This document shows positions 44,499 through 61,927 of a stretch of 64,000 nt of DNA, piece by piece; within the stretch, counting starts at the first letter, position 1, and every line of letters starts with the position of its first letter. The DNA comes from a virus, in IMG/VR virus record IMGVR_UViG_3300031566_000001, positions 64,001 through 128,000 of that record; one strand, written 5' to 3'. The notes under the pieces are model-generated. The model was given only the letters and a program-made list of their open reading frames with translations. It was not told where the DNA came from and did no database searches. The position numbers and the translations under genes are program-made.

Positions 44499-45503
44499 AT
44501 GTCTAGCTACTGGAAGGACCGCCGGGTTATCTGCACGGGGGGATCGGGCTTTCTCGGCTCTCACCTGGTCGATGCCCTGAGGCGCTTGGATTGCAAGCCG
44601 TTTGTCCCCCGCTCCGGCCAGTACGATTTGCGGAGTGAAGAGGGCGTTATCAATATGTTCAACGATGCCATGGCGCTGTGGGGCCAGGAGGGGTGCCAAA
44701 CCCTGTTTCACCTCGCGGCGCTGTGTGGTGGTATCGGGTTCAATCAGAAGTTCCCCGCTCGGTTGTGGCATGACAATTTGCTGATGGGCATCCATCTCAT
44801 CAACACGGCGGCATTTTGCGGGGTGGAGAAGTTTGTGGGTGTGGGTACGGTGTGCTCATACCCGAAGCATACCCCGACGCCGTTCAATGAACAGTCCTTG
44901 TGGGACGGTTACCCTGAGGAGACCAATGCTCCTTACGGCCTCGCCAAGAAGGCGCTCCTGGTTGGCCTGCAGGCGTATGGGCAAGAGAGGCAATTAGAGT
45001 GGACCTACGTCATGCCCACGAACCTCTACGGGCCGCGGGATCACTTCGGGGCGCGGTCCCACGTCATCCCGGCCCTGATTGACAAGTTTCTACACGCCAA
45101 AGGGGAGCCTACGGTGTCTGTGTGGGGCACGGGCACGCCCACGCGCGACTTTCTGTACGTCAAGGACTGCGCTGCGGCGCTGCTCCTGGCGGGGGAGTTG
45201 CTTTCGGGAGGTCCGTACAACATCGGCTCAGGACGCGAAATCAGCATCGAGGACCTGGCACGCCTCATAGCGGACGCAGTGGGCTTCCGGGGTCAAATCT
45301 GCTTTGATGCCTTCAAGCCCGACGGCCAGCCACGCCGGGTGCTCGATAGTTCCAAGTTTATGAAACTAACAGAGTGGTCCCCACAGGTGGGGTTCGAGCA
45401 GGGATTGACTCAGACGGTGCAGTGGTATAGAGATTTACAGCAGGACGGCAAGCCTGAGTTGACCGGTGTGCGTGCTGAATCCGGTGGGTCGCCGTCGGTA
45501 TAG
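44499..45503 (+). CDS. fcl: GDP-L-fucose synthase
   Basis: TGGSGFLG, HLAALCGGIG.N, GTVCSYPK, PEETNAPYGLAK, PTNLYGP, SHVIPALI, WGTGTPTRDFLYV, KPDGQPRR. Confidence 0.93.
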   Translation: MSSYWKDRRVICTGGSGFLGSHLVDALRRLDCKPFVPRSGQYDLRSEEGVINMFNDAMALWGQEGCQTLFHLAALCGGIGFNQKFPARLWHDNLLMGIHLINTAAFCGVEKFVGVGTVCSYPKHTPTPFNEQSLWDGYPEETNAPYGLAKKALLVGLQAYGQERQLEWTYVMPTNLYGPRDHFGARSHVIPALIDKFLHAKGEPTVSVWGTGTPTRDFLYVKDCAAALLLAGELLSGGPYNIGSGREISIEDLARLIADAVGFRGQICFDAFKPDGQPRRVLDSSKFMKLTEWSPQVGFEQGLTQTVQWYRDLQQDGKPELTGVRAESGGSPSV

Positions 45504-45512
45504 GGAGGGAAC

Positions 45513-46160
45513 ATGAACGAGATTGCTGTTTTTCAGATGGGCAAGTGCGGGTCGTCCACGGTCATTGAGCTGGCGCGGAAGCTGGGCATCCACGCTTCGC
45601 GGGCGTACACCCCGATGAATGCTGTGCAGGCACAGTATCCCAACGTCATCAGCATGGCTCGGGAGCCGGTGATCCGGAACGTCTCAGCGTTCTTCCACGA
45701 GATGGCGGGCACGCTGACAGAGACGGGCTACAGCCAGGCGCTGCTAGATGAGTTCCTGCTGGGGAAGCATGATGTGCCGCTGACGTGGTTCTCTAAGGAG
45801 TTCCAGGCTGAGACCGGCATCAGCATCTATGCAGAGAAGTTCGACCGCAAGCGGGGCTGGTCCATCTATGAGAGTGGTAACAGGCGCATCTTGGTCATCA
45901 GGACTGAGGATATGACCAGGTGCCTCCTGGAGGCCATGGGTGCCCTACTGGGTGAGGAGCTGCCACGGGTAGAGGTAGAGCATTGGTTTAGTGATGCTGA
46001 GCGGCCTCACGGCGTGGGCGCTTTGTATCGGCAGTTCATGAGGGAGGCTGTTATGTCGGAGGCGTACCTGAGGCGCATGTATGGCAGCCGGTATGCCAAG
46101 CACTTCTACTACAAGAAGGAGCTTGACAGCTTTCGCGAGTTCTGGAGCGCACCGAGATGA
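45513..46160 (+). CDS. Sulfotransferase-like / putative capsular polysaccharide synthesis protein
   Basis: QMGKCGSST P-loop-like motif, REPVIRNVSAFF, YGSRYAKHFY. Confidence 0.7.
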   Translation: MNEIAVFQMGKCGSSTVIELARKLGIHASRAYTPMNAVQAQYPNVISMAREPVIRNVSAFFHEMAGTLTETGYSQALLDEFLLGKHDVPLTWFSKEFQAETGISIYAEKFDRKRGWSIYESGNRRILVIRTEDMTRCLLEAMGALLGEELPRVEVEHWFSDAERPHGVGALYRQFMREAVMSEAYLRRMYGSRYAKHFYYKKELDSFREFWSAPR

Positions 46161-46876
46161 GGGTATTCGTGACCACTAATGACCGGCACTTGTGGATACT
46201 TCCGGCCTTTGCGTACCTGTTCAACAAGTACTGGTCCTCTTTGCAACCTGTGGTCGTGGCGGGCTACAGCCGCCCCGACTTTGAGCTGCCCCCCAATTTC
46301 GAGTTCTACCAGATCGCGGAGGCGAACTACCCTGTTGAGAAATGGTCTGACGGGGTGGTGCAGTTCTTGGAATCCGTGAACGATGAGCTGTTCGTGTGGA
46401 TGCTGGAGGATATGCTTCTCACGCGCACGGTAGATGTGCGGGCCGTGGGTAGCCTGGCGGAGTACATGACGCTGCACCACGAGGTCATTAGGATAGACCT
46501 AACTGCTGACAGGCTCTACGCGGGGGCATCGCCGGGGCAGAGGCCTGAGTATGAGTACTACGGTAGCATGGACCTTGTGTGGTCGGAGCCGTCCAGCCCG
46601 TATCATCTCAGCCTGCAAGCGGCTATCTGGCGGCGGGACTACCTGCTGAATTATATGATCCCCGGTGAGACGCCCTGGCAGCTGGAGATGGCAGGTACGG
46701 AGCGGCTATCGAGCACGCCGGAGGTGGTGGTACTGGGCACCCGGCAGCTCCCATGTAGATATACATTGGCCCTCAAGAGCGAGCATCCCACGGAGCCGAG
46801 CATAACCGGGATGCGCCAGGAGGACTATGACTATCTGGTGGAGCGGGGCTGGCTTCCGGAGGGGTGTCTGACGTGA
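46157..46876 (+). CDS. Putative glycosyltransferase (GT-A-like)
   Basis: MLEDMLL and SLQAAIWRRDYL...ETPWQLE, typical of polysaccharide-locus GTs. Confidence 0.55.
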   Translation: MRVFVTTNDRHLWILPAFAYLFNKYWSSLQPVVVAGYSRPDFELPPNFEFYQIAEANYPVEKWSDGVVQFLESVNDELFVWMLEDMLLTRTVDVRAVGSLAEYMTLHHEVIRIDLTADRLYAGASPGQRPEYEYYGSMDLVWSEPSSPYHLSLQAAIWRRDYLLNYMIPGETPWQLEMAGTERLSSTPEVVVLGTRQLPCRYTLALKSEHPTEPSITGMRQEDYDYLVERGWLPEGCLT

Positions 46877-48090
46877 AGCGAGACATAGACTCAATCATCA
46901 TCGGTGAGCGGCATCGCAAGAACCTGGGGGATATCAAGGTTTTGGCTGCTAGTATAGCGGATATTGGCCTTTTGCATCCTGTGGTGATACGTCCTGATGG
47001 GGTACTCATTGCTGGCCTGCGCAGGCTAGAAGCCTGCAAATTGCTAAGTTGGTCCAAGGTTCCCGTCACAGAGGTGAACCTGGAAGAGATAGTCCGTGGC
47101 GAATCTGCTGAGAATATCTATCGCAAGGACTTTCCATTATCTGAGGCCGTCGCCATAGGCGAGGCCCTAGAACCGTTGGAGGAAGAAGCAGCCAAGAAGA
47201 GAAAGCGAGAAGCTGGCATTGCGAATTTACCGACTGTGAGTGCCAAAAAGTTTTCGGCACTCACGAAGAAAGAAACAGGTGAAACCCTTTCCAAGGTCGC
47301 CGCTGCTATAGGGATGTCTAAGCCGACTTATAAGAAGGCCAAAGAGATTGTTGAAGCAGCACGGAAGAAACCTAAAAAGTATGCTCCGCTTGTAGAGAAG
47401 ATGGACCAGATTGGTAAGGTGGCTGGTATCCACAAAGACCTGAAAAGAATGCAGAAAGCTGAGAAAAAAGCTAAGCAAGCGAAGGCGCAACCTTGCATGG
47501 ATGGGATACTCGTTGGCTCGATCACGGAGGTCGGCACTCAAATTACTGATGATACCGTGGACTTTGTGCTCACGGACCCACCATATGCTGGCGGTCAAGT
47601 TAGTTTGTTCAGTGACTTATCCGCTCTCGTGGCTAGGGTACTAAAACCTGGGGGCCTCTGTTTGGTCTATAGTGGCCAGATGTTCTTGCCGGAGGTTATC
47701 GTTGGCTTGGGTGAACATCTGGAGTACGTTTGGACTTTTGCCATTCGGCACAGTGGCGGCAATCAGCGTATCCACAAGTTCAATCTCAATAACGCGTGGA
47801 AGCCGGTCTTGGCATATTGCAAACCGCCGCTCGAAGTATGGTGGGATAGTTTCATTGATCTCACGACTGGGGGCCGAGAGAAGGACCTTCATAAATGGCA
47901 GCAAGCCGAAACGGAGGCCGCTTATTTCATTGAGCATTTGACCATGCCGGGGGCCCTGGTATTGGATCCGTTCATGGGTAGTGGTACGGTCCTGGCGGCG
48001 GCGAAGCGCTTGGGTCGGGCTTACTTGGGCATCGAAATTGATTCTGACGTGGCTGCGAAGGCGGCGAAGAGGATTGGAGAAGTCAAATGA
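46864..48090 (+). CDS. ParB-domain DNA methyltransferase (N4/N6)
   Basis: ParB motif LAASIADIGLLHPV...LIAGLRRLEA; MTase motifs TDPPY and LDPFMGSGT. Confidence 0.9.
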   Translation: MSDVKRDIDSIIIGERHRKNLGDIKVLAASIADIGLLHPVVIRPDGVLIAGLRRLEACKLLSWSKVPVTEVNLEEIVRGESAENIYRKDFPLSEAVAIGEALEPLEEEAAKKRKREAGIANLPTVSAKKFSALTKKETGETLSKVAAAIGMSKPTYKKAKEIVEAARKKPKKYAPLVEKMDQIGKVAGIHKDLKRMQKAEKKAKQAKAQPCMDGILVGSITEVGTQITDDTVDFVLTDPPYAGGQVSLFSDLSALVARVLKPGGLCLVYSGQMFLPEVIVGLGEHLEYVWTFAIRHSGGNQRIHKFNLNNAWKPVLAYCKPPLEVWWDSFIDLTTGGREKDLHKWQQAETEAAYFIEHLTMPGALVLDPFMGSGTVLAAAKRLGRAYLGIEIDSDVAAKAAKRIGEVK

Positions 48091-48524
48091 CCCGACAACG
48101 CATGGATGGAAAAGGAACACCCTTTGGCGAATGGCTTAGGACCCGCCACCAAGGCAAGATAGGGTCGCACACTTTCTCCGCCCAGAACCTTGACTACATT
48201 TGGCACAATTACCGCGAGAATTGGTTCATCACCATCGAAGAGAAGCGCTACGGCGGTATGAGGGACCGGAGTGCGCAGAGAGCTCAAAGGGATACCCATG
48301 GCATAGTAGCGCAATTGCTCGAAGGGTCTTCGGGTATGGATGTTGATACGCTGCGGGGCCATCGAAGGGCTGAGTATCGTGGTCATTATGAGATTGTGTT
48401 TGACCGGACCAGCCCGGACGATGGTGATATGACCATCAATGGGAGGCAGGCGAACGAGCAAGATTTGCTTAGACTCTTGACGGTTGGCAGATGGTCATGG
48501 AGTTCTGCGGAGTTGGAGCTATGA
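48087..48524 (+). CDS. Hypothetical protein, possible PD-(D/E)XK fold
   Basis: NLDYIW...ITIEEK pattern; coupled to the MTase. Confidence 0.5.
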   Translation: MTRQRMDGKGTPFGEWLRTRHQGKIGSHTFSAQNLDYIWHNYRENWFITIEEKRYGGMRDRSAQRAQRDTHGIVAQLLEGSSGMDVDTLRGHRRAEYRGHYEIVFDRTSPDDGDMTINGRQANEQDLLRLLTVGRWSWSSAELEL

Positions 48525-49423
48525 TCACCGTCCCCATCCGCGACGGCACCTTCCCGCACAGCGCCTCCATGTCCCTGGCTGGCGAGAACGCGGGCGAGGC
48601 CCCGAAGTCTCTGCACTGGCGCCGTGTGCCGGACCTCCTGGATGATGCGCCTGTGATGGTGTTCACGGATATGTGCCTGGATGAAGTCTTGCTCTCCCGG
48701 TCCCCGACGAACATCGCCATTCTTATAGAGCCGCCTGCGTTCTCCACGACTCATTATGAGAAAGCTGTGATGCTGGAGAAGTACTTTGATGCCATATTCA
48801 CCTATGACCTGGAGCACCTGCGCCGTGGCGGCCCGTGGCGGTTCTACCCCTATGGCGGGTCGAGGATTCAGGAGTGGCACGTCTACGAGAAGCTGGGGCT
48901 AGTGAGCCTCATTGTGTCGGATAAGCACGTCACGGAGGGGCACCGCCTCCGCCATGAGGCTGTTGAGCGGTTCGGCTCGCACCTACACGTCTTTGGGGAG
49001 CCTTATACCGAGTACCTTAACCCGAAGGGACCAGGGCTGCGGCCCTTCTGTTATTCCGTTGTCATCGAGTCTGGGCGGAGTGACTACTATTTTAGTGAGA
49101 AGCTCGTTGACTGCTTCTCACAGGGAGCGGTGCCCATCTACTGGGGCTGCCCTGGCATTGACGGGTTTTTTGAGGGGAACGGGATCATCTCCTTTGAGAC
49201 CCTGGATGACCTGGCGTACATCCTGGCGTCCATCTCAATGCAAGACTATCACGACCGCTTGCCTGCTATCATGCGTAATCTGGAGCTGGCGCGGAGCTTT
49301 CGGTGTGCCGAGGACCACCTGGTACGGGAGTATGGCTGGCTTTTCGAGGACAGTGAGCAGGCGGCCCTGATGCGCATGCAGAGCAAGGAGCAGCTGGTGC
49401 AGAGTGAGCCGGTAATCAGGTAA
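48521..49423 (+). CDS. GT10 family fucosyltransferase-like protein
   Basis: YSVVIES...YYFSEKLVDCF..GAVPIYWG, the GT10 signature. Confidence 0.85.
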   Translation: MITVPIRDGTFPHSASMSLAGENAGEAPKSLHWRRVPDLLDDAPVMVFTDMCLDEVLLSRSPTNIAILIEPPAFSTTHYEKAVMLEKYFDAIFTYDLEHLRRGGPWRFYPYGGSRIQEWHVYEKLGLVSLIVSDKHVTEGHRLRHEAVERFGSHLHVFGEPYTEYLNPKGPGLRPFCYSVVIESGRSDYYFSEKLVDCFSQGAVPIYWGCPGIDGFFEGNGIISFETLDDLAYILASISMQDYHDRLPAIMRNLELARSFRCAEDHLVREYGWLFEDSEQAALMRMQSKEQLVQSEPVIR

Positions 49424-49430: not shown

Positions 49431-49775
49431 ATGATGCATGATGTGGGGGACATTCATGTAGCAGTAGATGTCAGGCCCTTTGGCGGCGTTGAGATTTATA
49501 TTGGGCGTGGGAGGGGTTCTGGTTTTGAGGTGGCTCAGCCTGTAGAGCTGATATTCAAGTCCGCGAAGCCGGAGGAGGTATCCGAGCCAACTTTGCGGTT
49601 AGGTGAGTACTATGCCCATGAGCTGTTACAGGCGCTGGCTGAGGGGTTCGATAGTATTGGTATCAGGACCGACAAAGATGCCAAGATTGAAGGCACGCTG
49701 GGAGCGACGCGGTATCACCTGGAAGATTTGCGGAGCTTGCTGAAGTTGGGGGGGGATGAGAACCAATCTCAGTGA
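49431..49775 (+). CDS. Hypothetical protein
   Basis: SD AAGGAGG. Confidence 0.65.
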   Translation: MMHDVGDIHVAVDVRPFGGVEIYIGRGRGSGFEVAQPVELIFKSAKPEEVSEPTLRLGEYYAHELLQALAEGFDSIGIRTDKDAKIEGTLGATRYHLEDLRSLLKLGGDENQSQ

Positions 49776-50475
49776 CAAACGGCTGTTCTTCGTGATCGGT
49801 CCACCCCGGTCCGGCACGACCATCGTGGCCAGAGTATTCAACTCCTTAGAAGATGGGTTCTGCTTAGGGGAGCCGCACTGGATTCACGAGGCTGAGGGCG
49901 GCAAGGCTGACGGGCAGGCCTACGGCAAGGTCGAACGGTGGCACAAGCCCGTGGATGATTACCGGCTCATCATGCAGGCCAATGTGATACCGATCCTGGA
50001 GCGGGGTCCTTTCAAGGTTGGAGGCTACAAGGAGACTTACCAGCACTTCCGGCATACCTGCGAGCCTTTGCTGGAGGCTCACATGCCCTTGGTAGACTTC
50101 TTCATCGTGGTGCTTCGGGACCCCCGACTGGTGCTATCCTCGCTGCGGGCGCTGGGCTGGGACAATGTGCGAGTGAGAGACATCAATCAAGACTACGAGC
50201 GCATGAGTGAGCTGGCGCAGGATGAGCGGGCGGTCGTGGTGGTCTTGGAGGACTTCGTGAAGGACCCCCTGGGATACCTGAATGCGTGGCTGCCCTTTCA
50301 GATCGAGGGGCCTTTGGAACTGAAGCCCACGGGTCACAGGTACGGTGACACGGTTGCCAATAAGGGTGATACTGTGGACCCCGAGGCGCCGGGCCGGAGA
50401 GTTATGGACCTCAGCGACAAGTGGGTGCGGGGTTTGGCCCCGGCCATGGGGGTGTGGGAACGATGGAAGAGCTAA
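49756..50475 (+). CDS. Sulfotransferase
   Basis: FVIGPPRSGTT (5'-PSB) and VLRDPR...SS (3'-PB). Confidence 0.85.
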   Translation: MRTNLSDKRLFFVIGPPRSGTTIVARVFNSLEDGFCLGEPHWIHEAEGGKADGQAYGKVERWHKPVDDYRLIMQANVIPILERGPFKVGGYKETYQHFRHTCEPLLEAHMPLVDFFIVVLRDPRLVLSSLRALGWDNVRVRDINQDYERMSELAQDERAVVVVLEDFVKDPLGYLNAWLPFQIEGPLELKPTGHRYGDTVANKGDTVDPEAPGRRVMDLSDKWVRGLAPAMGVWERWKS

Positions 50476-51281
50476 GGGCCTTGATGGGACGGTACACTGT
50501 GGAGAACCTGGACCCTTTTGAGGCATCTGACGGGATGGAGGCCAAGCGGTTCCAGGAGCGCATCGAGTCCCTGCCGGGCACGGTGTACGGTGATGACCCC
50601 AATCAGCGCCCGTTTGATAACGTGTTCACCTGGGGGCACGACCATGATTTCGGGACCTTCCAGATGAAGGGCCAGATGGGAGATCGGCACATCCGGGTGG
50701 TCAAGGCGTTCCTGGATATGGGGGTGGAGTTCAAGGGCCGTGTGCTGGACGTGGGCTGCTGGACTGGTGGCACATCGCTCCTACTGGCGGCGATGGGGTG
50801 CGAAGTCACCGCTGTTGAAGAGGCTCTTCATTATGCTGGGGTCATGAACTTTTTGGCGCAGGCCTTTGGCCTTGGGAGTCAACTGGAGGTCATTCATTGG
50901 TCCCTTTACGACCTTCCGGGCTTTTGTGAGCCGGTGGACATGGTGGGGAGGTTTGACCTGGTTTTGTGCGCGGGCGTCCTGTACCATGTGACTGATCCTG
51001 TACGTGCTCTACGCATCATGTTTGAGCGTTTGGCAGACGGCGGGACGTTGTTGCTGGAGACCGCGATCTCTGAGGTTACGGGCAAGCATTTGGTCTACTG
51101 CGGCCCGCAAGAGCCGGGTTACCGATGGCTCCTACCTACGGTGGAGGTGTTGTACTGCATGTTGGTGGACGTGGGTTTCAAGGACATTCAACACGAACTG
51201 CACGCTGACGGCAGCCGGGCTACGGTAGTCGCTAAAAGGAAGGAACACGTGAGTATGATGATGGCGGGGGTATCGAGGTGA
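50463..51281 (+). CDS. Class I SAM-dependent methyltransferase
   Basis: VLDVGCWTG, FDLVLCAGVLYH, GGTLLLET. Confidence 0.85.
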   Translation: MEELRALMGRYTVENLDPFEASDGMEAKRFQERIESLPGTVYGDDPNQRPFDNVFTWGHDHDFGTFQMKGQMGDRHIRVVKAFLDMGVEFKGRVLDVGCWTGGTSLLLAAMGCEVTAVEEALHYAGVMNFLAQAFGLGSQLEVIHWSLYDLPGFCEPVDMVGRFDLVLCAGVLYHVTDPVRALRIMFERLADGGTLLLETAISEVTGKHLVYCGPQEPGYRWLLPTVEVLYCMLVDVGFKDIQHELHADGSRATVVAKRKEHVSMMMAGVSR

Positions 51282-51817
51282 CCATAACAGCTTTTGACCT
51301 TTCAGATGGGAATGAACCAATGAGTTACGGCGAGATCAACTTCCTGGTCTCATTGGTCAAGGACCTTACGGCAGAACCGGTCATCGTCAACATCGGGGCC
51401 GCGGATGGTGTGTCCACCGTGGCTATGCTGGAGGCCCGCAGGGATGCCTTCATCTTCTCTGTGGACATCGGCGAGTGCCCCCAGGAGCGGGCCAACGTAG
51501 AGGCTGCTGGGCTTGATGTAACCCGCGTGGTGCGACTCTTAGGGCGCAGTCAGGACGTCGGCAAGCGGTTCCCCTATGAGGCTGATATGGTGCTTGTGGA
51601 TGGAGGGCATGATTATGAGTCCGTGGGGGGGGATATTGAGGTCTGGGCTTGGCGCGTGCGACCTAGCGGGGTGCTGGCGTTTCACGACTACATCGAGCCA
51701 CCCCGGCCTGCGAACAACCCGAGTGAGGCTTTTGAGGCTGTGAATGATAACCTACCGGACGGGTTTGAGCTGGTCAGCCGTGTGGACAGGCTGATTGCAT
51801 TCAGGAGGGTGGGGTGA
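51278..51817 (+). CDS. Methyltransf_24-like methyltransferase
   Basis: NIGAADGVST, LVDGGHDY, GVLAFHDY. Confidence 0.8.
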   Translation: MTITAFDLSDGNEPMSYGEINFLVSLVKDLTAEPVIVNIGAADGVSTVAMLEARRDAFIFSVDIGECPQERANVEAAGLDVTRVVRLLGRSQDVGKRFPYEADMVLVDGGHDYESVGGDIEVWAWRVRPSGVLAFHDYIEPPRPANNPSEAFEAVNDNLPDGFELVSRVDRLIAFRRVG

Positions 51818-53790: not shown

Positions 53791-54000
53791 ATGTTTGAGA
53801 TTTTTCAGGGCGTTATTCTTAAATCGGATTGCCGACTAATCATTGTGTTTCGTGATGAGGGGTCTATGCAGGCTGAGTTGATAACCCTCAATACTCATGG
53901 TCTGTTGGTCCATGCTGAAGGGGGCACTATGTATGTGCCTTGGACCTCAGTCAAGACTGTCGAGCTTCTTGATATTCTCGATGATTCTAGTGGGGAATAG
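53791..54000 (+). CDS. Small Sm/LSm-like hypothetical protein
   Basis: SD GGAGG; beta-rich with a YVPWTSVKTV end. Confidence 0.5.
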   Translation: MFEIFQGVILKSDCRLIIVFRDEGSMQAELITLNTHGLLVHAEGGTMYVPWTSVKTVELLDILDDSSGE

Positions 54001-55202
54001 TGGAGCCAAGGGGCATTCTCTACTTTGCCATAGGTAGTAGGTATCTCATGCAGGCACAGAAGGCCGTGGCTCGCGTGCGGGACGTGTGGCCTGGGATGCC
54101 GTGCGCTATCTGGACGGAGCGGGTACCTGGTCCGGTGATGCTATCCCGTATGGAGGCCTGGCGGCAATCACCCTTCGAGCGCACCCTGGCCCTGGATGCA
54201 GACGTGTGGCTGGCGGAGCCGGTGCCGGAGGTCTTTGACTTACTGGACCGCTTCGACCTGGCGGCGGCGTATGCCCCCTGGAGAGAGGGTTATCCTGTGA
54301 ATGTGCCCGATGCCTTCCCGGAGCACAACTGCGGCGTGGTGGCCTTTCGTAAAGATGTGATCCTACTGGATTTCATGAACGATTGGGAGCGGAGGTTCCG
54401 GGAGCGCTACAGGGACATAGAGGAGATCAAGGGTTTCCACAATGATCAACCCGCTTTCCGGGAGGCCCTGTACTACTCAAGGGTGCGTGTCGCTACCCTG
54501 CCAGCGGAGTACAACTGGCGGGGTGTGGGTTATGTTTGGGGGAAAGTGAAGGTGCTGCACGTCAGGCGCCCGCCCCAGATGGTAGAACGGGAGATCAATG
54601 AGCGACTTGGACCAAGGGTGTGTATGAACTGGAAGATTCACTATGGAGAGGAGTTCCACCCGTCGATGATGCTGGAGGCGATAGACCTGACTGGCAAGGA
54701 CTACCATCACGAGCTAGAGGACATAGACACGCTGAAACGGCTGGCGGGGATGCTGCCCAGGGATGCGGTGGTAGTCAACATCGGGGCTGCGTTTGGTACG
54801 AGCGCCCTAGCACTCCTGGAGGCCCGTGAGGACCTGTTCGTGTTCTCTGTGGATGTGAAGCCCTGTGAGAAGGAGAGGGAACACCTGGCGCAGTCGGGCG
54901 TGGACCCGGCGCGGTGCGTGCGGGTGCTGGGTCGCTCTCAGGAGATAGGGTGGCCGCGTGTGGTGGATATGGTTTTTCTGGATGGTTCCCATGCCCGCAA
55001 GGACGTGATAGCGGACATCGAGGCATGGCTGCCCCGAATCAAGCCAGGGGGCATCGTGGCGGCTGATGACTACGAGAAGGGCTGCACACCTGCGGTGAAG
55101 CCTGTGGTGGATGAGGTGCTGATGGGCAAGTATGAGATGATCCTGCACGTGGGGGATATCGTGGCATTCAGGATACAGGGAGGGGACGATGGCAGAGCGT
55201 GA
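54000..55202 (+). CDS. Glycosyltransferase (GT-A, DxD) fused to a Methyltransf_24 domain
   Basis: TLALDAD, NCGVVAF, DQPAFR and LPAEYN, then NIGAAFGTS, FLDGSH and ADDY. Confidence 0.8.
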   Translation: MEPRGILYFAIGSRYLMQAQKAVARVRDVWPGMPCAIWTERVPGPVMLSRMEAWRQSPFERTLALDADVWLAEPVPEVFDLLDRFDLAAAYAPWREGYPVNVPDAFPEHNCGVVAFRKDVILLDFMNDWERRFRERYRDIEEIKGFHNDQPAFREALYYSRVRVATLPAEYNWRGVGYVWGKVKVLHVRRPPQMVEREINERLGPRVCMNWKIHYGEEFHPSMMLEAIDLTGKDYHHELEDIDTLKRLAGMLPRDAVVVNIGAAFGTSALALLEAREDLFVFSVDVKPCEKEREHLAQSGVDPARCVRVLGRSQEIGWPRVVDMVFLDGSHARKDVIADIEAWLPRIKPGGIVAADDYEKGCTPAVKPVVDEVLMGKYEMILHVGDIVAFRIQGGDDGRA

Positions 55203-55380
55203 GTGCCTGGAGTGCGGCTGCGTGCGCGGCGAGTACCTGTGCCGGGTGGCGGAGCATCTCTGGGGCAGGGTAGAGTCGTTCTACCAGCGCAGCCAGAGGA
55301 TGGGCTTCGATGAGAAGACCTGGAGCGATTATCAAGGGGCGCTGGCAGACTACAAGGCGCATTTCGGCAGGGAATCATGA
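55189..55380 (+). CDS. Hypothetical protein
   Basis: SD GGAGGGG. Confidence 0.5.
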   Translation: MAERECLECGCVRGEYLCRVAEHLWGRVESFYQRSQRMGFDEKTWSDYQGALADYKAHFGRES

Positions 55381-56183
55381 ATGAGCAAGACCTCAAGGAC
55401 GCCTTCGCGGCCCTGGAGCCGATGAGTGACGAGGCCCCGCCCCGGTACACGTGGGAGCGGCACCGGTGGGAGATGCGCCGCCATGTGCGCCGGGATCCCA
55501 TTGCGGGGTTCTTGAACTGGCCCACGGTGACGGCTACCATGTTCGCGGGGGAGACCCCGTTTATCCGTTCTGAGCTGGAGGCCCTGCGGGCGCAGCCTGA
55601 TTGGGCGATCCCTTGGCGGCCTGCCATCGCGGATAGCGGAATAGGCAATGCCCCACGGATGTCCGGCGACACTTCCACGAACGCCAATATGATTCATCAG
55701 GCTTTTCACCTGATGATGTGGAACAAGGCCACGCTCAAGGAGCTGCGGGACCTGGAGACCATCACGGAGTTCGGTGGGGGCTATGGGGCCATGTGCCTGA
55801 TAGCGTCAAGATTGGGGTTCCGGGGCACCTACCGCATGGTGGACTTCCCCGAGATGCGGCTTCTGCAGACCTACTACCTGTCACAGCACGAGCTGGGGTG
55901 CACGGTGGAGTTTCGGGAGGTCATCGGCCCACCGCGTTCAGACCTGTTGGTGGCTTGTTATTCGCTGAGTGAGGTCCCGCTAGAGGATCGCAAGCCGCTT
56001 CTCGGGGACGGGCGCGCTGACCATGCGGCCAATAGCTATCTCTTTGCCATGCAGGATAAGTGGGATGACGTGGACAATCTGGATTGGGTGAGGCAGTTTA
56101 CTATGTGGGACAGGGACGACTTGCTGTGGTCCATCTTCCCGATGGTGAGGCCGGGGCACTGGTACGCGATGGGCAATGCCTAA
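55377..56183 (+). CDS. Putative sugar O-methyltransferase
   Basis: EFGGGYG, VDFPE...LQTYYL, YSLSEVP. Confidence 0.75.
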   Translation: MNEQDLKDAFAALEPMSDEAPPRYTWERHRWEMRRHVRRDPIAGFLNWPTVTATMFAGETPFIRSELEALRAQPDWAIPWRPAIADSGIGNAPRMSGDTSTNANMIHQAFHLMMWNKATLKELRDLETITEFGGGYGAMCLIASRLGFRGTYRMVDFPEMRLLQTYYLSQHELGCTVEFREVIGPPRSDLLVACYSLSEVPLEDRKPLLGDGRADHAANSYLFAMQDKWDDVDNLDWVRQFTMWDRDDLLWSIFPMVRPGHWYAMGNA

Positions 56184-56247
56184 ATGGATCAACGACCTAA
56201 ATGCACAGGTCATAGAGTGTGATGAAGGTGGAGGATGAGGAGGAGAA

Positions 56248-56394
56248 ATGAATGAGATAGTTGCGGTGCTCGTGGTGGTCTTGGTGCTGTTCTTTGTAGG
56301 GGTGCCCCTGGCGATGGTGCTCATTTCTCTTGGATGGCGCTGGCTTGACTTCGTAAATAGCAAGCTACATATCGTCAAGGGTCCGTGGGACTAG
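56248..56394 (+). CDS. Small membrane protein between repeats 1 and 2
   Basis: 48 aa, one TM helix, SD AGGAGG. Confidence 0.6.
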   Translation: MNEIVAVLVVVLVLFFVGVPLAMVLISLGWRWLDFVNSKLHIVKGPWD

Positions 56395-56460
56395 ATGCCC
56401 AAGTGGACTGAGGATCTAAACGCATAGGTCATAGAACGCGACGAAGGTGGAGGATGAGGG

Positions 56461-56733
56461 ATGACCGAGAATGATGCTAGGTACTGTCTCAAGCTGCTAC
56501 GAGATGAGTTGCCAGACGGGATAGACAAGGTTCTTGCCGAAGACCCCGACGTGGTAGTGCTGGCTAAGGAGTTGATGGAAGAGCATACCCTCATGGACGA
56601 AGAGGGAGTTCTGTGGGTGAACTTAGAGCACGGGCTGCTAGAGGGCATCTTAGAGGTGCAGTTCGGCATTCGCCTGACGCCCGGTGGCTATGAGTGGGTA
56701 GGAGGACAATGCCTAAGTGGATCGACGATCTAA
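56461..56733 (+). CDS. Hypothetical protein between repeats 2 and 3
   Basis: 90-aa ORF whose SD is supplied by the repeat tail. Confidence 0.6.
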   Translation: MTENDARYCLKLLRDELPDGIDKVLAEDPDVVVLAKELMEEHTLMDEEGVLWVNLEHGLLEGILEVQFGIRLTPGGYEWVGGQCLSGSTI

Positions 56734-57002
56734 ACCTAGAGGTCATAGAACGCGATGAGGAACGATGTATCCTCTGTCCTGCGCCAGCGATGTATAAGCC
56801 GCACCACATCGTCCCCAGGTCTAGGGGCAAGGGGCGGAGTCCGAAACTATGGCGCTTAGAGAATATGTGTTGCGTCTGCCCACTACACCATGACAATACC
56901 AAGGCACTGCGAATCAGGTTGCTTGAGAGAATGGTTGAGCTTGGGCATGATATGACTTGGGCCAGAGAATTTGTCGGCGAGATCGCGGGGGTGACATGCT
57001 AA
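56709..57002 (+). CDS. HNH endonuclease
   Basis: RD..RCILC...HHIVPRS.G...N.CCVC..HH. Confidence 0.85.
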   Translation: MPKWIDDLNLEVIERDEERCILCPAPAMYKPHHIVPRSRGKGRSPKLWRLENMCCVCPLHHDNTKALRIRLLERMVELGHDMTWAREFVGEIAGVTC

Positions 57003-58393
57003 TCTGCGCTGACTCTAGGGCTGCGCTGGCAGAGATAGAAGAGGGGAGCGTACAGTGCTGCATCACCTCTCCGCCATACTGGAGCCTCCGCAGGTACGGC
57101 GATGCAGCGGAGATGGTCTTTGGCGGCGATGCTGGCTGTGAGCATGAGTGGGGGCAGCACATTGTCAATCGGCGGGGCGCAGGCGGCGAGAGGGAATATG
57201 GCAGCTCTGATAGCGGTGTGGGCCGGGGGCCGGCACCCGAGTTGCCCTCCTCCAATATCTGCTCCCTCTGCGGCTGCTGGCGCGGTCAGTTCGGATTAGA
57301 GCCCACCCCCGAGATGTACGTGGAGCACATGCTGGACTTTTTGCGGGCAATATGGCGGGTGCTGAGGGATGATGGGACGCTGTGGCTGAATCTCGGGGAC
57401 TCTTATGCGAGTCAGGGGGGGGCTAAGACAGAAGCCTCATACGCCTCAGCAGGCACGGGCAATAGTGCCAATCGGACGCTGCGGGTTGATGCCCGGAGAC
57501 CACCCGGAGGCCTCAAGCCCAAGGACCTCGTGATGATCCCCTTCCGCGTGGCGTTGGCTGCGCAGGCAGACGGGTGGTGGGTGCGGTCGGTGATCATCTG
57601 GTCCAAGCCTAACCCCATGCCAGAGTCAGTGCGGGACAGGCCGACAACGGCGCATGAATACGTGTTCCTCTTGACGAAGAGCAAGACCTACTTCTACGAT
57701 GCCGATGCGATAAGGGAGCCATGTACCATGACGCCCCAGGCCAGGTTGACTCCACGAGACATGAAGAATGGCAAGGATAGCCAGCGGGCCGTTCACCGTA
57801 GACCACAATACCAGCTCCGAGATGAGCCAGGGGTAGAGGGCAACCCATTAGGCCGCAACAAGCGTACGGTCTGGGAGATAGCCACGGCCCCATATCCCGG
57901 CGCCCACTACGCAACATTTCCTCCCAAGCTAGTAGAGCCGATGATACTGACCACGCCCACGAAGGTCTGCGCTGAGTGCGGGGCTGGGTGGGAGAGGGTG
58001 GTTCAGAAGCCCGACATGAAGGAGCGACCAAAGCGCAACCAGCAGAAATACGGAGCAGAGCGCATCAATGTTGGCTGGGGTGACTACCCGCAGAGCGCGG
58101 GGCAGGAGTGGCAAAAGTGGCGCAACGAGAACCCTGACGTAACCCTTGGCTTCCGCCCCACCTGCTCCTGTGATGCTGAGACCAAGCCCGCCGTCATCTT
58201 AGACCCCTTCTGTGGTAGGGGCACCGTTCTCAAAGAGGCAAGAGCGCATGGCCGGGACTGGATAGGCATAGACGTCGATCCTCAATCTATCAAGCTGGCG
58301 GAGGAATGGCTGGGGCTAGGGGAGGTTACCTATGAGATTGACGAAGAGCATTGGATACAGCCGCAATTAGTCAATGAGGAGTCAGCACAATGA
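56996..58393 (+). CDS. DNA methyltransferase (N4-C/N6-A, beta class)
   Basis: CITSPPYW, LWLNLGDSY, IIWSKPNPMPESV, HYATFP, LDPFCGRGT. Confidence 0.92.
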   Translation: MLICADSRAALAEIEEGSVQCCITSPPYWSLRRYGDAAEMVFGGDAGCEHEWGQHIVNRRGAGGEREYGSSDSGVGRGPAPELPSSNICSLCGCWRGQFGLEPTPEMYVEHMLDFLRAIWRVLRDDGTLWLNLGDSYASQGGAKTEASYASAGTGNSANRTLRVDARRPPGGLKPKDLVMIPFRVALAAQADGWWVRSVIIWSKPNPMPESVRDRPTTAHEYVFLLTKSKTYFYDADAIREPCTMTPQARLTPRDMKNGKDSQRAVHRRPQYQLRDEPGVEGNPLGRNKRTVWEIATAPYPGAHYATFPPKLVEPMILTTPTKVCAECGAGWERVVQKPDMKERPKRNQQKYGAERINVGWGDYPQSAGQEWQKWRNENPDVTLGFRPTCSCDAETKPAVILDPFCGRGTVLKEARAHGRDWIGIDVDPQSIKLAEEWLGLGEVTYEIDEEHWIQPQLVNEESAQ

Positions 58394-59652
58394 TCTTTTC
58401 CAATCGTCACGAGGTGGAGACACACCTGGCTGAGCAGGCCGATGGGGGTGTCATCGTCGAAGTGGGCTGCGGCGTAGGCGATGGCCTGGTGGCCCTGCTC
58501 AACGGCACGCGGTACGGTAGACTTTTGCCTGTGTATGCTGTCGATCCTTATACTCCCTACGTGGACAAGCTGGGGGGCACCTACGGGCCGGAGAGCAAGC
58601 AGGAGGCCCTGGATAAGGTGGTGGGCACGGGGTTGGGGCGGTTGGTGGCCTTCGTCGAGGAGGACGGCGTACTGGTGGGCGAAAATTGGGACTTGCCTAC
58701 GGCCCTGGTGTGGATTGACGTCAGCATGGAGTATGACGGTCTCAAATGCGTCTGGGACGCCTGGGCGGACAAGGTCATGGAGGACGGACATATCGCTATC
58801 GCGGGCCTGGGTTATAGCAGCCTGGGTACAGCGCGGGTGATGCAGGAGGCCGTTGACTCGGGGGACTTCGTGCGGGTGCTGTCGGAGCAGGACAGGGTGG
58901 CGGTACTACGCAGGGTGCCCCGGAATAGGCGGGCCGTGTTCTACATCGTGGATGGTGAACCCTATGCTGAGGAGGCGGCTTACAGTGCGTCCAGTGTCAA
59001 GGAGCACATGCCCGGCGTGGAGACCTTTCTGTTTGCGGTGGGTGGCACAGGGGCCAGGGAGAGCATCGACCACGTAGTGCTCTTGCCGCCTCGGGAGAGC
59101 GAGCTGTGGTACCTGGACAGCACGCGGTACTTCAACCAGGCGGTGGCGCACCTCCACGAGTACAACCGTCTTTTGTACCTTGACACGGATACCTGGGTGG
59201 CCTGGGACTGTTTGGATATGTGGTGGCTCCTAGAGCAGTTTGACGTGTGCCTGGGGCACAGTGCGGGCCGGGAGGCCATGCCTTCAGCGATTGGGACGCC
59301 CCCGGCGTTCACTACCCTGTCTATCGGGGTTAGTTTATTCCGCAACAACGCGGAGGTCCGGGCTACGCTGGCGGACTGGCTGGCGTTCTACGAGAAGTAC
59401 CAGGGCATCTACGGCGACAATGATGAGAGTCCTTTAAGGGATGTGCTGTGGCTGAATCGGCAGGGGCTGAAAATGTATATCCTGCCCCCTGAGTACAACG
59501 TCCGAGCTGGGTTTGGGTGCTGGCTCTACGGTCGGGCTAGGATAGTTCATGCTCGGCTGCCTCGGTTGAGGCATGTAGCAGAGCAGTTGAATGAGCACAC
59601 GTCTATGCGTTTGTGGCACGATGGTGAGTTCTTGTGGTGGCATCAGAAGTGA
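58390..59652 (+). CDS. Methyltransferase fused to a GT-A glycosyltransferase
   Basis: VEVGCGVG...AVDPY, then LYLDTD, DESPLR and LPPEYN. Confidence 0.75.
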   Translation: MIFSNRHEVETHLAEQADGGVIVEVGCGVGDGLVALLNGTRYGRLLPVYAVDPYTPYVDKLGGTYGPESKQEALDKVVGTGLGRLVAFVEEDGVLVGENWDLPTALVWIDVSMEYDGLKCVWDAWADKVMEDGHIAIAGLGYSSLGTARVMQEAVDSGDFVRVLSEQDRVAVLRRVPRNRRAVFYIVDGEPYAEEAAYSASSVKEHMPGVETFLFAVGGTGARESIDHVVLLPPRESELWYLDSTRYFNQAVAHLHEYNRLLYLDTDTWVAWDCLDMWWLLEQFDVCLGHSAGREAMPSAIGTPPAFTTLSIGVSLFRNNAEVRATLADWLAFYEKYQGIYGDNDESPLRDVLWLNRQGLKMYILPPEYNVRAGFGCWLYGRARIVHARLPRLRHVAEQLNEHTSMRLWHDGEFLWWHQK

Positions 59653-59665: not shown

Positions 59666-59944
59666 ATGGACAGCAACGTCTTAACCCGAGGCATAATTCC
59701 CCTGAGGCGCATCAAGCGCCTGCGTAGGTGCATGAACCCCAGTTGCCGCTTCGTGGTCGGCGCGGGCAAGATGGCCTTGGAGAGCACCAACATCGGTGAG
59801 TTCGCGCGGTTGACCTGCCCTAAGTGCGGAGCACTGCATGTGTTCAACCCCATCTCTACTGTGAGGCCTGATGCTGAGCGGCACATCTTCGTGGTCCGTG
59901 ACCGGGGTGGTCAGGTAGAGCATATTTTCCCGAGGGTGCAATGA
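59666..59944 (+). CDS. Zn-ribbon protein
   Basis: CMNPSC...CPKCG. Confidence 0.6.
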   Translation: MDSNVLTRGIIPLRRIKRLRRCMNPSCRFVVGAGKMALESTNIGEFARLTCPKCGALHVFNPISTVRPDAERHIFVVRDRGGQVEHIFPRVQ

Positions 59945-60390
59945 GGCGGCGCTACTTTGAGTGGGATTACGTTAGTAACCGCATGACTGAGTGGGCTCGC
60001 GTGGGGCACTGCTGCCAGTGCGCCGCGTGTTGTCAGAACAGCATCGGCTTCAAGTTTGAGAGCAGCAAGCTCTATGAAGCGAAGAAATCGGGCAGTTACT
60101 ACACCACTGGCAAGGGCATCTGGCAGGAGGTCCGCGTAGGGGGCCGGTACAGGCACTTCTTCCAAATGGAGTACGTGGCTGCCAAAGGGAAGGGGTGCGC
60201 CAGCCTGGAGCGTGGCTTGTGCGAGGAGTATGAGCACCGTACTTGGATTTGCCGGGAGTGGCCCTTCTCGCCGCGCTGCATAGAAGCCACCTCGGAGTGT
60301 ACTTATGGATTCCGCGAGGTTGATCGTAGGTCTTTTGTGGTCGTCGTCCCTGAGAAGGACGAGGGCGATTTCGTACATGTGCCATTGTAG
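59941..60390 (+). CDS. YkgJ-family cysteine cluster protein
   Basis: CCQCAACC...C..L...LC..YEHR..ICREWP. Confidence 0.75.
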   Translation: MRRRYFEWDYVSNRMTEWARVGHCCQCAACCQNSIGFKFESSKLYEAKKSGSYYTTGKGIWQEVRVGGRYRHFFQMEYVAAKGKGCASLERGLCEEYEHRTWICREWPFSPRCIEATSECTYGFREVDRRSFVVVVPEKDEGDFVHVPL

Positions 60391-60399
60391 GAGGGTGTT

Positions 60400-61059
60400 A
60401 TGGTCACTAAGGCCATCATGCTCATCCACGTCTTCCGGACCGGTGGTTACATGGTGCAGGGGGTCCTACGGAAGGTCCCTGGCCTGGTGATGGTCTCGGA
60501 TAGGCCCACGGAGCACCTGACCTATGATCAGATGGCTGTGGTGTGCGCGAGAGAACGCATGGGGAACCCGCCCGCTATGGTTTTTATCCGCAACCCTTTT
60601 GACTGGTATGTCTCTATGTGGTGCTGGGTCAACATGGCGCCGAACATGCCTCCAGTCTCGGAGTTCCGCGAATACCTGGAGGTCATCCGGGTGCGGCGCT
60701 ATGGCACCACGGGGACGGGCCGCAACTATAGCAGGCTCTCCGAGCACTGGGCTGACATGGGGGCAGGCAAGGCGCAGTGGGAGGGGCGCTTTGAGACTCT
60801 ACGGGAGGACTTCATGGACATCATGCTCAAGGTCATGCCCAGCCTGGTGAACGAGAAGATGTTAGGGGACCTCATGGCCAAGGAACCCATCTATCACCCC
60901 AGCAGGCATCCTCAGACAGGTAGGCATCCTGGGGACTATCGGCAATACTACACCCCGGAGACAAGGGCATTGGTCGAGGAGTGGGACAGTGAGCTTCTAG
61001 AGCGGTTCGGTTACACTTTTGAGGAGAAGGTAGATGATATACCCAATCCCGGTGCCTGA
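60400..61059 (+). CDS. Sulfotransferase family 2-like protein
   Basis: IHVFRTGG, IRNPFDWYVS, RFETLREDF, DYRQYY...FGYTF. Confidence 0.8.
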   Translation: MVTKAIMLIHVFRTGGYMVQGVLRKVPGLVMVSDRPTEHLTYDQMAVVCARERMGNPPAMVFIRNPFDWYVSMWCWVNMAPNMPPVSEFREYLEVIRVRRYGTTGTGRNYSRLSEHWADMGAGKAQWEGRFETLREDFMDIMLKVMPSLVNEKMLGDLMAKEPIYHPSRHPQTGRHPGDYRQYYTPETRALVEEWDSELLERFGYTFEEKVDDIPNPGA

Positions 61060-61927
61060 TGAGTTCCGCCCGGCCAGCCAGGGTTACACTATGCCGCCGC
61101 ACTGCCCGCCGGAGGGGTACGGCGTGGAGCAGGACTTTGACGCTTGGTTACGGACGCAAGGGGAGCTTTTGACTGATTCCGCGGAGGCCGACTGGCTGTA
61201 CCTCCCGGTGTTCTGGAACCGGCTCTTTATTGCCACCTGGAAGTGGGCGCAGGATGAGGCCGCCATAGCCCGCTGCGCCGATTGGCTGGCGGCTCTCAGG
61301 GATAGTTTGGGCGGCTTTGAGAGGGTGTTCACCGTCTGTGAATGGGACCTGACCACGGAGCGGCAGGAGCTGGGCACGGACGGGCTGACTGTGTTCACGG
61401 CGGGGCGTCGGGATCGCGCAGGCCTTGATATACCGTTGCTCTGTGCCCCACATGGCGTCCCGCCGGTTTCATACGGCAAGCAATACCTGGCGTCATTTGT
61501 GGGCAACATTGGGACGTCAGGCTGGCGTCAGGGTATGTTGGAGGCCCTGGAGGGCTACGGCGGGGTCCTCATCGAGCACGCACAGAAGGGGCCAGCCTAT
61601 TTCTGTGATGTGATGACCAAGAGCTACGTGGCCCTGGCCCCCAGGGGTCACCGGGGGCAGAGCTTCCGGTTCTACGAGGCCATGGACATGGGTGTGGCCC
61701 CGGTCCTGATCGGTGATATGGATACCCGGCCCTTTAAGAATTGGGTCAATTGGGACTCATGCTCTTACTACGTTCCTGACGCCTCGGAACTTCCCGGCTT
61801 TATTGACAACCTGGACCTGGAGGACGCGTTACGCAAGGGCGCGGAGGCGGCACGGGTATACCATGAGTGTCTGCGGTTCGGGCGGTGGTGCATGTTTGTG
61901 GTGCCTGAGCTGCTGAGCGTGCCGTAA
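61034..61927 (+). CDS. Exostosin/GT47 family glycosyltransferase
   Basis: EADWLYLPV and LAPRG...SFRFYEAM..G..PVLI. Confidence 0.85.
   Translation: MIYPIPVPDEFRPASQGYTMPPHCPPEGYGVEQDFDAWLRTQGELLTDSAEADWLYLPVFWNRLFIATWKWAQDEAAIARCADWLAALRDSLGGFERVFTVCEWDLTTERQELGTDGLTVFTAGRRDRAGLDIPLLCAPHGVPPVSYGKQYLASFVGNIGTSGWRQGMLEALEGYGGVLIEHAQKGPAYFCDVMTKSYVALAPRGHRGQSFRFYEAMDMGVAPVLIGDMDTRPFKNWVNWDSCSYYVPDASELPGFIDNLDLEDALRKGAEAARVYHECLRFGRWCMFVVPELLSVP

Follow-up and report, generated by a model that had tools for sequence, protein, structure and literature searches.

We examined a 64,000-nt stretch of viral DNA, bases 64001-128000 of a 143,142-bp IMG/VR virus record; this whole stretch is referred to as the window, and positions are counted from its first letter unless the record is named. 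At 44499-61927 the window carries an island of overlapping, co-oriented genes, bounded by a generic Amidase_2 endolysin gene (43434-43979) and a GC-rich hairpin. The island is 17.4 kb long, about 23% of the phage genome. An earlier note, made from the letters alone, had described it as one block of enzymes for a fucosylated, sulfated and O-methylated glycan, and had listed a GDP-fucose synthase, glycosyltransferases (GTs), sulfotransferase-like proteins, methyltransferases, a radical SAM/SPASM enzyme and a YkgJ protein. All of these gene classes were found again where the note had placed them (Table 1), and the block proved to be a single promoter-to-hairpin operon spanning about 44380-62045. 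Glycan enzymes occur throughout it; part of the 17.4 kb, however, is mobile cargo carrying DNA methylases and an HNH-like open reading frame (ORF), and to that extent its description as a glycan pathway has to be narrowed.

Table 1. Predicted features of the island, of the capsid region and of the parent record (window positions, except for the first two rows; SAM, S-adenosylmethionine; PAPS, 3'-phosphoadenosine 5'-phosphosulfate; pLDDT, predicted local distance difference test)
Feature	Position	Strand	Basis or remark
Genome A	~1-77.4 kb of record		self-comparison
Genome B	~77.5-143.1 kb of record		self-comparison
Major capsid protein, HK97 fold, disordered Ser/Thr-rich C-terminal tail	25262..26761	+	AlphaFold pLDDT 77.7; outside island
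Triple glycosyltransferase (GT4/GT1-like + GT2 + GT2), 877 aa	26816..29449	+	Pfam; 54 bp after capsid gene
Island promoter	44380..44450	+	imperfect and perfect TTTTGC..GCAAAA palindromes, then TATACT
GDP-L-fucose synthase (Fcl, 3,5-epimerase/4-reductase)	44499..45503	+	NCBIfam, PDB matches
NKWYS-family, sulfotransferase-like	45513..46160	+	PF10364 41.7 bits; P-loop-like 'GKCGSST'
GT-A-fold glycosyltransferase, unnamed virus-only family	46157..46876	+	predicted structure, Foldseek
ParB_N + N6/N4 DNA methyltransferase	46864..48090	+	Pfam; missing at this position in genome A
145-aa ORF, genome B only	48087..48524	+	no family match, no counterpart in A
GT10-type alpha-1,3/4-fucosyltransferase-like enzyme	48491..49423	+	homologue profile
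114-aa ORF	49431..49775	+	no matches
Sulfotransferase (Sulfotransfer_3)	49756..50475	+	PF13469 36.4 bits vs 27; PAPS loop 'GPPRSGTT'
Class I SAM methyltransferase (Methyltransf_23/11/12/25)	50421..51281	+	Pfam
Methyltransf_24 O-methyltransferase-like; paralogue of 54000-55202 C-half	51278..51817	+	Pfam
Two small ORFs	51814..52456	+	83 aa, kept in genome A; 136 aa, weak Phage_ABA_S match
Methyltransf_24 methyltransferase, genome B only	52422..52973	+	Pfam
Radical-SAM-derived/SPASM protein	52975..53733	+	Radical_SAM 33.1 vs 29.5, SPASM 33.8 vs 21.5 bits
GT8-like GT-A domain (N) + Methyltransf_24 (C) fusion	54000..55202	+	
NanM-like putative sugar O-methyltransferase	55377..56183	+	TIGR04371 E 1.3e-5; SAM motif I 'EFGGGYG'
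Genome-B-specific insert	56184..58393	+	~55-bp repeats, 48-aa and 90-aa ORFs, HNH-like ORF, DNA methyltransferase
48-aa hydrophobic ORF	56248-56394	+	inside genome-B insert
HNH-like ORF	56694-57002	+	HNH reading by eye only; no Pfam match
N6/N4 DNA methyltransferase	56957..58393	+	Pfam
Methyltransf_24 (N) + GT8-like GT-A domain (C) fusion	58390..59652	+	
Zinc-ribbon-like 92-aa ORF, upstream of YkgJ-like gene	59666..60390 (joint span)	+	
YkgJ/CxxCxxCC-type protein	59941..60390	+	borderline, 22.6 bits vs 23
Sulfotransfer_2-like protein	60400..61059	+	language-model (Atlas) similarity 0.96 to viral Sulfotransfer_2 clusters
GT47 exostosin-like glycosyltransferase	61034..61927	+	Pfam PF03016, PDB
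Operon-ending GC-rich hairpin	61928..62045	+	followed by a sigma-70 consensus promoter

Enzymes encoded by the island

The first gene of the island encodes a GDP-L-fucose synthase. NF047922 was by far its best-scoring family (240.7 bits, E 2.5e-71, positions 2-305 of 308; below the 500-bit equivalog cut-off), and GDP-fucose synthases took all of the top 15 places in the PDB search (E 2e-52 to 2e-28). Its counterparts of the enzyme motifs, 'GTVCSYP', 'YGLAK' and 'SHVIPALI', retain the Cys, the Tyr-x3-Lys and the His, whose catalytic roles we take to be those of E. coli Fcl. In line with the earlier note, which had seen neither gmd nor PAPS synthesis genes, no gmd, adenosine 5'-phosphosulfate (APS) kinase or ATP sulfurylase gene was present anywhere in the 143-kb record. 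Since gmd is absent, the phage Fcl would draw on the GDP-4-keto-6-deoxymannose of its host and, since PAPS genes are absent, sulfation would use host PAPS; both are arguments from absence.

The GT10 protein, searched as a single sequence against Pfam, gave an E value of 0.12. A profile of 27 homologues matched the Helicobacter pylori alpha-1,3-fucosyltransferase in the PDB (2NZW/5ZOI, E 2e-13) and FUT9 (E 2.5e-6), and PF00852 is carried by many of the homologues, including those 65-70% identical to the island protein. The profile thus confirmed the assignment as a predicted GT10 fucosyltransferase-like enzyme, with predicted activity on GDP-fucose as donor. GT10-like genes are common in viral contigs: two peptide patterns gave at least 576 matches in IMG/VR, and in 35 of the 80 best loci (L006-L085) an Fcl-like gene lay within 10 kb of the GT10-like gene, which is suggestive, at most, of GDP-fucose use. 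The closest homologues of the GT10 protein and of the radical-SAM-derived protein were found on contigs of 27-55 kb (P0003/P0125, P0006/P0124, P0012). Scans of IMG/VR with the single GT10 or GT47 sequence returned nothing, and alignments were needed.

Four further island proteins contain glycosyltransferase domains. The GT47 protein scored 49.7 bits against PF03016 (cut-off 33.4), with exostosin-1 as its top PDB match (E 0.0011). The small protein at 46157-46876 had no annotation at the sequence level; a model computed from an alignment of 31 homologues adopts a GT-A fold (pLDDT 92.8), and its Foldseek matches were B4GALNT1, POMGnT1 and SpsA. The two fusion proteins join a GT-A and a Methyltransf_24 domain in opposite orders; their GT-A halves are homologous to each other and share the DxD motif 'LDADV', and the label GT8-like reaches them by way of a homologue in a related phage (L080).

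Tailoring enzymes make up much of the remainder. The island contains six non-DNA SAM methyltransferase domains, namely one Methyltransf_23, four Methyltransf_24 and one NanM-like, and up to three sulfotransferases. Only the Sulfotransfer_3 protein among the latter passes a Pfam cut-off with a recognizable PAPS loop given in Table 1; the NKWYS-family protein had no PDB match, and the protein at 60400-61059, with a weak match to a PDB sulfotransferase (5x2b, E 0.07), is a candidate sulfotransferase to be treated as a lead only. The radical SAM/SPASM enzyme named in the earlier note passes both Pfam cut-offs but lacks the canonical CX3CX2C motif. In an alignment of 25 members of its family, C18-x5-H24-x2-C27 was invariant in place of that motif and the SPASM cysteines were invariant as well. 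The family consists of short proteins (about 250 aa), of which some 100 metagenomic members were found. For the small ORFs of the island, PHROGs and Pfam offered no family.

All island enzymes appear to be soluble. In a Kyte-Doolittle scan (19 aa) none of them had a hydrophobic window above about 1.8, and the few windows of 1.6-1.8 are Rossmann beta-1 strands. The island encodes no flippase, polymerase or exporter-like protein with multiple transmembrane segments and no lipid-carrier enzyme, which bears out what the earlier note had said about Wzx, Wzy, exporters, initiating transferases and transmembrane segments. Its remark that no base-hydroxymethylase could be recognized also stood, at least for enzymes of the thymidylate-synthase type, none of which was found in the whole record. 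A search for TET/JBP proteins gave no match; its control was silent too, and the result is uninformative. Taken together, the data support the prediction that the island encodes a soluble, cytoplasmic pathway for the assembly and tailoring of a glycan.

Operon structure and strain variation

The island promoter belongs to a recurrent element, the palindrome CTTTTGC(N0-2)GCAAAAG, often doubled and followed about 12 nt downstream by a TATAAT-like -10 hexamer; it is probably a phage-specific promoter or operator. The element precedes the tail gene at 35983 (copies at 35893/35922, reaching to 35960), the lysis genes (43178-43215) and the island (44380/44410). Further copies lie at window positions 1757-1830 and 63805 and at record position 136024, and it occurs in both genomes of the record described below. 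That the island shares a bipartite promoter with structural genes, as had been claimed, is correct for the tail gene, but the same element also fronts the lysis genes and a TnpB gene and is not peculiar to structural operons. Beyond the terminal hairpin, a perfect sigma-70 consensus promoter is found at 62202-62230.

Self-comparison of the 143-kb record revealed two collinear, related genomes arranged head to tail, with an offset of about 74-77 kb and 70-94% nucleotide identity. Positions 1-13,500 of the window are the end of genome A and the remainder is genome B; the junction lies near 13,400-13,550. A close homologue of a genome A protein is encoded on a separate contig of 69,345 bp (P0122). 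Because genomes A and B are collinear and because of this separate contig, it is most likely that assembly strung two strains together in this record and that the true genome is about 75 kb; a real 143-kb genome was rejected on the self-comparison.

A 15-gene core of the island is present in the same order in genome A, in genome B and in a third variant, C, recovered from two other metagenome assemblies (L086/L087). The order is Fcl, NKWYS, GT-A, GT10, sulfotransferase, MT23, MT24, small ORF, radical-SAM-like protein, GT-A/MT24 fusion, NanM-like methyltransferase, MT24/GT-A fusion, YkgJ-like protein, Sulfotransfer_2-like protein and GT47 (MT23 and MT24 stand for the Methyltransf_23 and Methyltransf_24 families). 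Island proteins of A and B are 67-90% identical, variant C is 92-96% identical to A, and the island of C is flanked on both sides by the same phage genes as in A and B. GC content is even across the window (0.55-0.62), with no break at the island. Misassembly with a host locus, which the earlier note had named as a result that would undo its proposal, was rejected in view of the three collinear variants, their common flanking genes and the even composition.

The genes that vary between strains are of another kind. Genome B carries an insert downstream of the NanM-like gene; genome A has an SNF2-helicase/methylase fusion in its place and also encodes a 271-aa methylase, at positions that differ from those in B. 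Within 56184-57002 there are two copies of a repeat of about 55 bp (approximately 'GATCTAAACGCATAGGTCATAGA..GATGAAGGTGGAGGATGAGG') and a third, diverged one; the copies flank the 48-aa hydrophobic ORF and a 90-aa ORF, and the third forms the 5' end of the HNH-like ORF upstream of the DNA methylase. This segment looks like a mobile insert of genome B. We read the DNA methylases and the HNH-like insert as strain-variable cargo in a permissive region, not as glycan genes.

The phage itself has the hallmarks of a siphovirus, namely a tape measure, a Dit-like protein and a Sipho_Gp37-like protein (Pfam, PHROGs), and its large terminase is about 25% identical to those of phiC31-like Streptomyces and Pontimonas phages. 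PHROGs and Pfam gave no match for ORFs of the tail-tip and lysis regions. A search for tyrosine integrases, which did not cover serine integrases, found none.

Homologous genes next to the capsid gene in related phages

About 15 kb upstream of the island, the major capsid gene is followed by a gene for a triple GT. Foldseek placed the capsid model among phage capsids (SPO1, PhiTE and HK97, E about 1e-9). A scan of IMG/VR with the GT10 profile led to three distant relatives, L080, L007 and L009, whose portal, capsid and triple-GT proteins are 27-44% identical to those of the present phage. All three have a GT10 gene in the interval from the capsid gene to the triple GT. The same interval in L080 also holds a GT-A of the 46157 type, a Sulfotransfer_1, two Methyltransf_24, a GT8-like, an FdtA and a DegT gene; in L007 it holds two GT2 genes, a GT10-like gene, an SDR epimerase, an FdtA-like gene, DegT and an acyltransferase. 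Among these genes are homologues or functional counterparts of island genes, sugar-nucleotide enzymes included. The triple GT of L080 (L080:15123-18137) has an additional C-terminal helix-hairpin-helix (HHH_5, E 7e-10) that the window's protein does not have.

We then asked how often island families occur at this place. A scan of IMG/VR with an alignment of the triple GT yielded 80 loci (32-82% identity), with a capsid gene detected in 61, a neck gene in 72 and a tube gene in 64, and identified the triple GT as the conserved anchor of the capsid-side system. The gap between the capsid gene and the triple GT varies from 35 bp to 11.4 kb among the relatives, and of the 61 loci in which a capsid gene was seen, 39 have homologues of island genes within it; almost without exception, a locus of this kind had all its detected homologues there. 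Broken down by family, the loci with a homologue number 33 for the 46157 family, 25 for MT24, 20 for the GT-A/MT24 fusion, 16 for Fcl, 13 for the NanM-like methyltransferase and 10 for GT10. The 46157-type gene usually comes directly after the capsid gene, and the NanM-like homologues are in the capsid-GT interval. A search of 46 relatives over their entire records (36-88 kb each) gave the same picture. Methyltransf_24 genes lay within 10 kb upstream of the triple GT in 22 of 25 matches, and one further match comes within that distance when its record, which has terminal repeats, is read across the ends. Seven of nine Sulfotransfer_3 matches fell in the capsid-GT interval; an eighth was just upstream of the triple GT, at a locus with no detected capsid gene. 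The pattern holds down to capsid identities of about 30%. GT47 was not found in the 46 relatives and is confined to the A/B/C lineage.

The gap measures no more than 54-62 bp in genomes A and B and in L099, the IMG/VR relative closest to them, and in A and B the island lies outside it, after the endolysin gene. Because island families sit on the capsid side in relatives and this gap is nearly empty in A, B and L099, the simplest reading is that the island is a displaced and enlarged version of a hypervariable capsid-side glycan cassette. On the same reading, the cassette would have moved behind the lysis genes in the A/B/C branch and gained GT47, the radical-SAM-like gene and the DNA-methylase cargo. 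The earlier note had proposed looking for co-occurrence of the cluster with the capsid-adjacent GT across phages; the survey above provides it, and it argues strongly that the pathway is genetically tied to the triple GT.

A proposed glycan on the phage particle

On balance we lean toward the view that the island is a late-expressed pathway building a complex glycan on the phage's own particle. We favor virion glycosylation because of the positional link of island families to the capsid gene and triple GT in relatives, the solubility of the enzymes and the promoter shared with tail and lysis operons; mycobacteriophages and chlorovirus PBCV-1 offer precedents. The earlier note had placed the product in the cytoplasm on a phage substrate; the soluble enzymes, their families and the link to the triple GT speak for that. 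The following account of acceptor, reaction order and sugars is what we infer. The host would provide GDP-4-keto-6-deoxymannose, PAPS, SAM and common nucleotide sugars, and the phage Fcl would turn the first of these into GDP-L-fucose. Either the triple GT or the small GT-A (46157), which are equally good candidates for the priming enzyme, or both, would start the chain on a structural protein. GT10 would attach fucose, GT47 and the two GT8-like domains would lengthen the chain, the GT-methyltransferase fusions and the free methyltransferases would O-methylate sugars during their addition, and up to three sulfotransferases would put on sulfate esters.

The most likely acceptor would be the flexible, Ser/Thr-rich C-terminal tail of the capsid protein, possibly together with the tail tube. 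The capsid C-terminus has an invariant Tyr...Gly-Gly motif followed by a tail of 13-23 residues that varies in sequence. Ser and Thr make up 24% of the tail after the GG, versus 13% of the whole protein, and a Ser or Thr lies within three residues of the GG in 33 of 36 capsid homologues; the model shows the tail as unstructured, with low confidence. The tail is a candidate acceptor and, as such, a lead. A complex prediction for the capsid protein and the 46157 GT-A scored 0.00 and gave no answer, which is evidence neither way. Two other proteins have domains of possible relevance to glycans: the putative tail-tube protein (30732-32246) has a C-terminal beta-propeller/BNR-like region (weak PSII_BNR match), and a 357-aa protein encoded between the terminase and portal genes (17639-18712) carries an Lcl C-terminal (lectin-like) domain. 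Both could be modules with which the particle binds glycans.

The enzymes could instead remodel the host surface by acting on lipid-linked or cytoplasmic envelope precursors (O-antigen, S-layer glycan or wall polysaccharide), and the changed surface might, for example, block superinfection or grazers, as proposed for the 'LPS/cell-wall' (lipopolysaccharide) clusters of T4-like cyanophages. Such is the published reading of cyanophage clusters with gmd, fcl and fucosyltransferases (PMC9602691), GTs at the cytoplasmic face can use host lipid-linked units together with a host flippase, and the frequency of GT10-like genes and nearby Fcl in unrelated viral contigs, like the place of the present island after lysis rather than head genes, would fit it. 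In relatives, however, the same families are inside the head-to-neck module and adjoin the capsid gene. The island has no membrane-associated or lipid-carrier enzymes, a late promoter common to tail and lysis genes would leave little time for a surface change to count, and the lack of a tyrosine integrase (with serine integrases outside the search) means that there is no sign of lysogeny. We consider this explanation rather unlikely. The product might also be a free oligosaccharide or small-molecule glycoside, cytoplasmic or secreted, that serves as a decoy, signal or enzyme inhibitor and is never attached to the particle. Rhizobial Nod factors have comparable chemistry, with methylated, sulfated fucose. 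No protein-priming enzyme was recognizable, and it is not obvious what the radical-SAM-derived and YkgJ-like proteins would do in glycosylating a protein; against this, there is no exporter, and in relatives the families are linked by position to the capsid gene. We judge a free glycoside improbable.

Addition of sugars to phage DNA bases, as a means of evading restriction, would account for the DNA methylases interspersed in the island and for the helix-hairpin-helix of the L080 triple GT, which also has a weak match to TET-associated GTs. The methylases differ between A and B and resemble mobile cargo, however, and neither a thymidylate-synthase-type hydroxymethylase nor, for what the search is worth given its silent control, a TET/JBP protein was found. 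GT10, GT47, sulfotransferases and sugar O-methyltransferases are families with glycan acceptors, and we know of none of them in any DNA-modification pathway. DNA hypermodification thus seems very improbable. We give equally little credence to the idea that the island is a loose set of unrelated accessory genes (morons) with no common product. DNA methylases, the HNH-like ORF and small ORFs are indeed interleaved with the glycan genes and vary between strains, but the 15-gene core keeps its order across three variants, the overlapping genes form a single promoter-to-terminator unit, and the families recur together beside the triple GT in relatives.

Several points weigh against virion glycosylation itself. 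The case for it is made of gene families and gene position, and the latter is circumstantial; in this phage the island is 15 kb from the capsid gene, behind the lysis genes, and its type of promoter also serves the TnpB gene. The relatives are not phylogenetically independent, so that fewer independent events lie behind the positional counts than the numbers suggest. Two assignments are weak, those of the sulfotransferase at 60400-61059 and of the YkgJ protein. At the level of BLAST, the island enzymes have no homologues in any isolated phage, mycobacteriophages included, and no consistent host emerged from the terminase, the endolysin or the triple-GT contigs binned in metagenome-assembled genomes. 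The taxonomy of those bins (Bathyarchaeia, Flavobacteriaceae, Starkeya, Paceibacterota and two Chloroflexota; L168-L174) is mutually inconsistent; they probably contain mis-binned phage contigs, and any hint at a Chloroflexota host is at most weak.

A broader proposal is a tentative one, which we would sooner doubt than assert: that these phages form a large lineage of uncultured siphoviruses with self-made, strain-specific capsid 'serotype' glycans whose locus evolves like an O-antigen locus. The present island would then be a 15-gene form for a sulfated, poly-O-methylated and fucosylated glycan, the first sulfated glycoprotein coat of a phage, made with a hijacked host pool of GDP-4-keto-6-deoxymannose and a new Cys-His-Cys radical-SAM-derived enzyme.

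If virion glycosylation is correct, it would be common in environmental siphoviruses (at least 80 related contigs have the triple GT), and virion glycan chemistry would be much richer than known (fucose, sulfate and multiple O-methyl groups), at a fast-changing locus. This would bear on the escape of capsids from capsid-sensing host defenses, on the behavior of particles in soil and water, and on phage therapy and display. The island is also a source for enzyme discovery, with soluble fucosyl-, sulfo- and methyltransferases, GT-methyltransferase fusions, a virus-only GT-A family and a radical-SAM-like Cys-His-Cys family. The occurrence of the same structural module with and without the cassette offers a genetic test bed. 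To our knowledge, glycosylation of phage particles has been demonstrated only in a few mycobacteriophages, where it alters antibody recognition. A literature search turned up no account of phage sulfotransferases that take part in glycosylating virions.

Comparison with known systems

The serotype-converting Gtr/Oac cassettes of temperate enterobacterial phages consist of three genes, two of them for integral membrane proteins, and modify periplasmic O-antigen in lysogens. The present phage resembles them in using GT2-type transferases that would alter a glycan (PHROG 'GtrB-like' matches), but differs in having 17 kb of enzymes with neither membrane proteins nor a tyrosine integrase. Another comparison is with the 'LPS / cell-wall synthesis and modification' clusters of T4-like cyanophages such as P-SSM2 and S-SCSM1 (PMC1079782, PMC9602691). 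They, too, bring together fcl, fucosyltransferases and further GTs, and in neither system has the target been shown by experiment. Unlike the island, they reside in myoviruses of more than 200 kb, include gmd and are read as modifying the host surface; they are not anchored to a capsid-adjacent GT, and the text consulted describes no sulfotransferases among them.

Chlorovirus PBCV-1 glycosylates its capsid protein Vp54 in the cytoplasm by means of multidomain GTs and GT-methyltransferase proteins (PMC7826918; reviewed in PMC9614988). Its A111/114R has three GT domains, including a fucosyltransferase, in 860 aa, and A064R combines two GTs with a methyltransferase (PMC7826918). The likeness extends to a three-domain GT (877 aa in the phage), to GT-methyltransferase fusions and to fucose and O-methyl sugars, the latter predicted here from genes. 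PBCV-1, in contrast, is a eukaryotic giant virus whose capsid is of the double-jelly-roll type and whose glycans are N-linked; no sulfation is reported for it. Unlike the phage, it also encodes gmd.

Mycobacteriophages, finally, are the nearest counterpart among phages. As cited in PMC11600133, Freeman et al. (2023, Cell Host Microbe 31:1216) attributed modification of capsid and tail-tube proteins to phage GTs and an O-methyltransferase, and the accounts of virion O-glycosylation in PMC11600133, PMC10568470 and PMC12582341 include Che8, Corndog/cluster O and Myrna. In a megablast search of 50,697 phage records the island had no match, and when the same records were searched by tblastn with the GT-A/methyltransferase fusion and with the 46157 GT-A, no mycobacteriophage GT was found; the only mycobacteriophage match was 28% identity to a methyltransferase of phage Boilgate. 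Both systems nevertheless belong to siphoviruses and combine soluble GTs with O-methyltransferase activity, known in the present case from genes alone. Compared with the mycobacteriophage system of about four genes, the island has about 15 core genes and adds a GDP-fucose synthase, GT10, GT47, GT-methyltransferase fusions, up to three sulfotransferases and a radical-SAM-derived protein.

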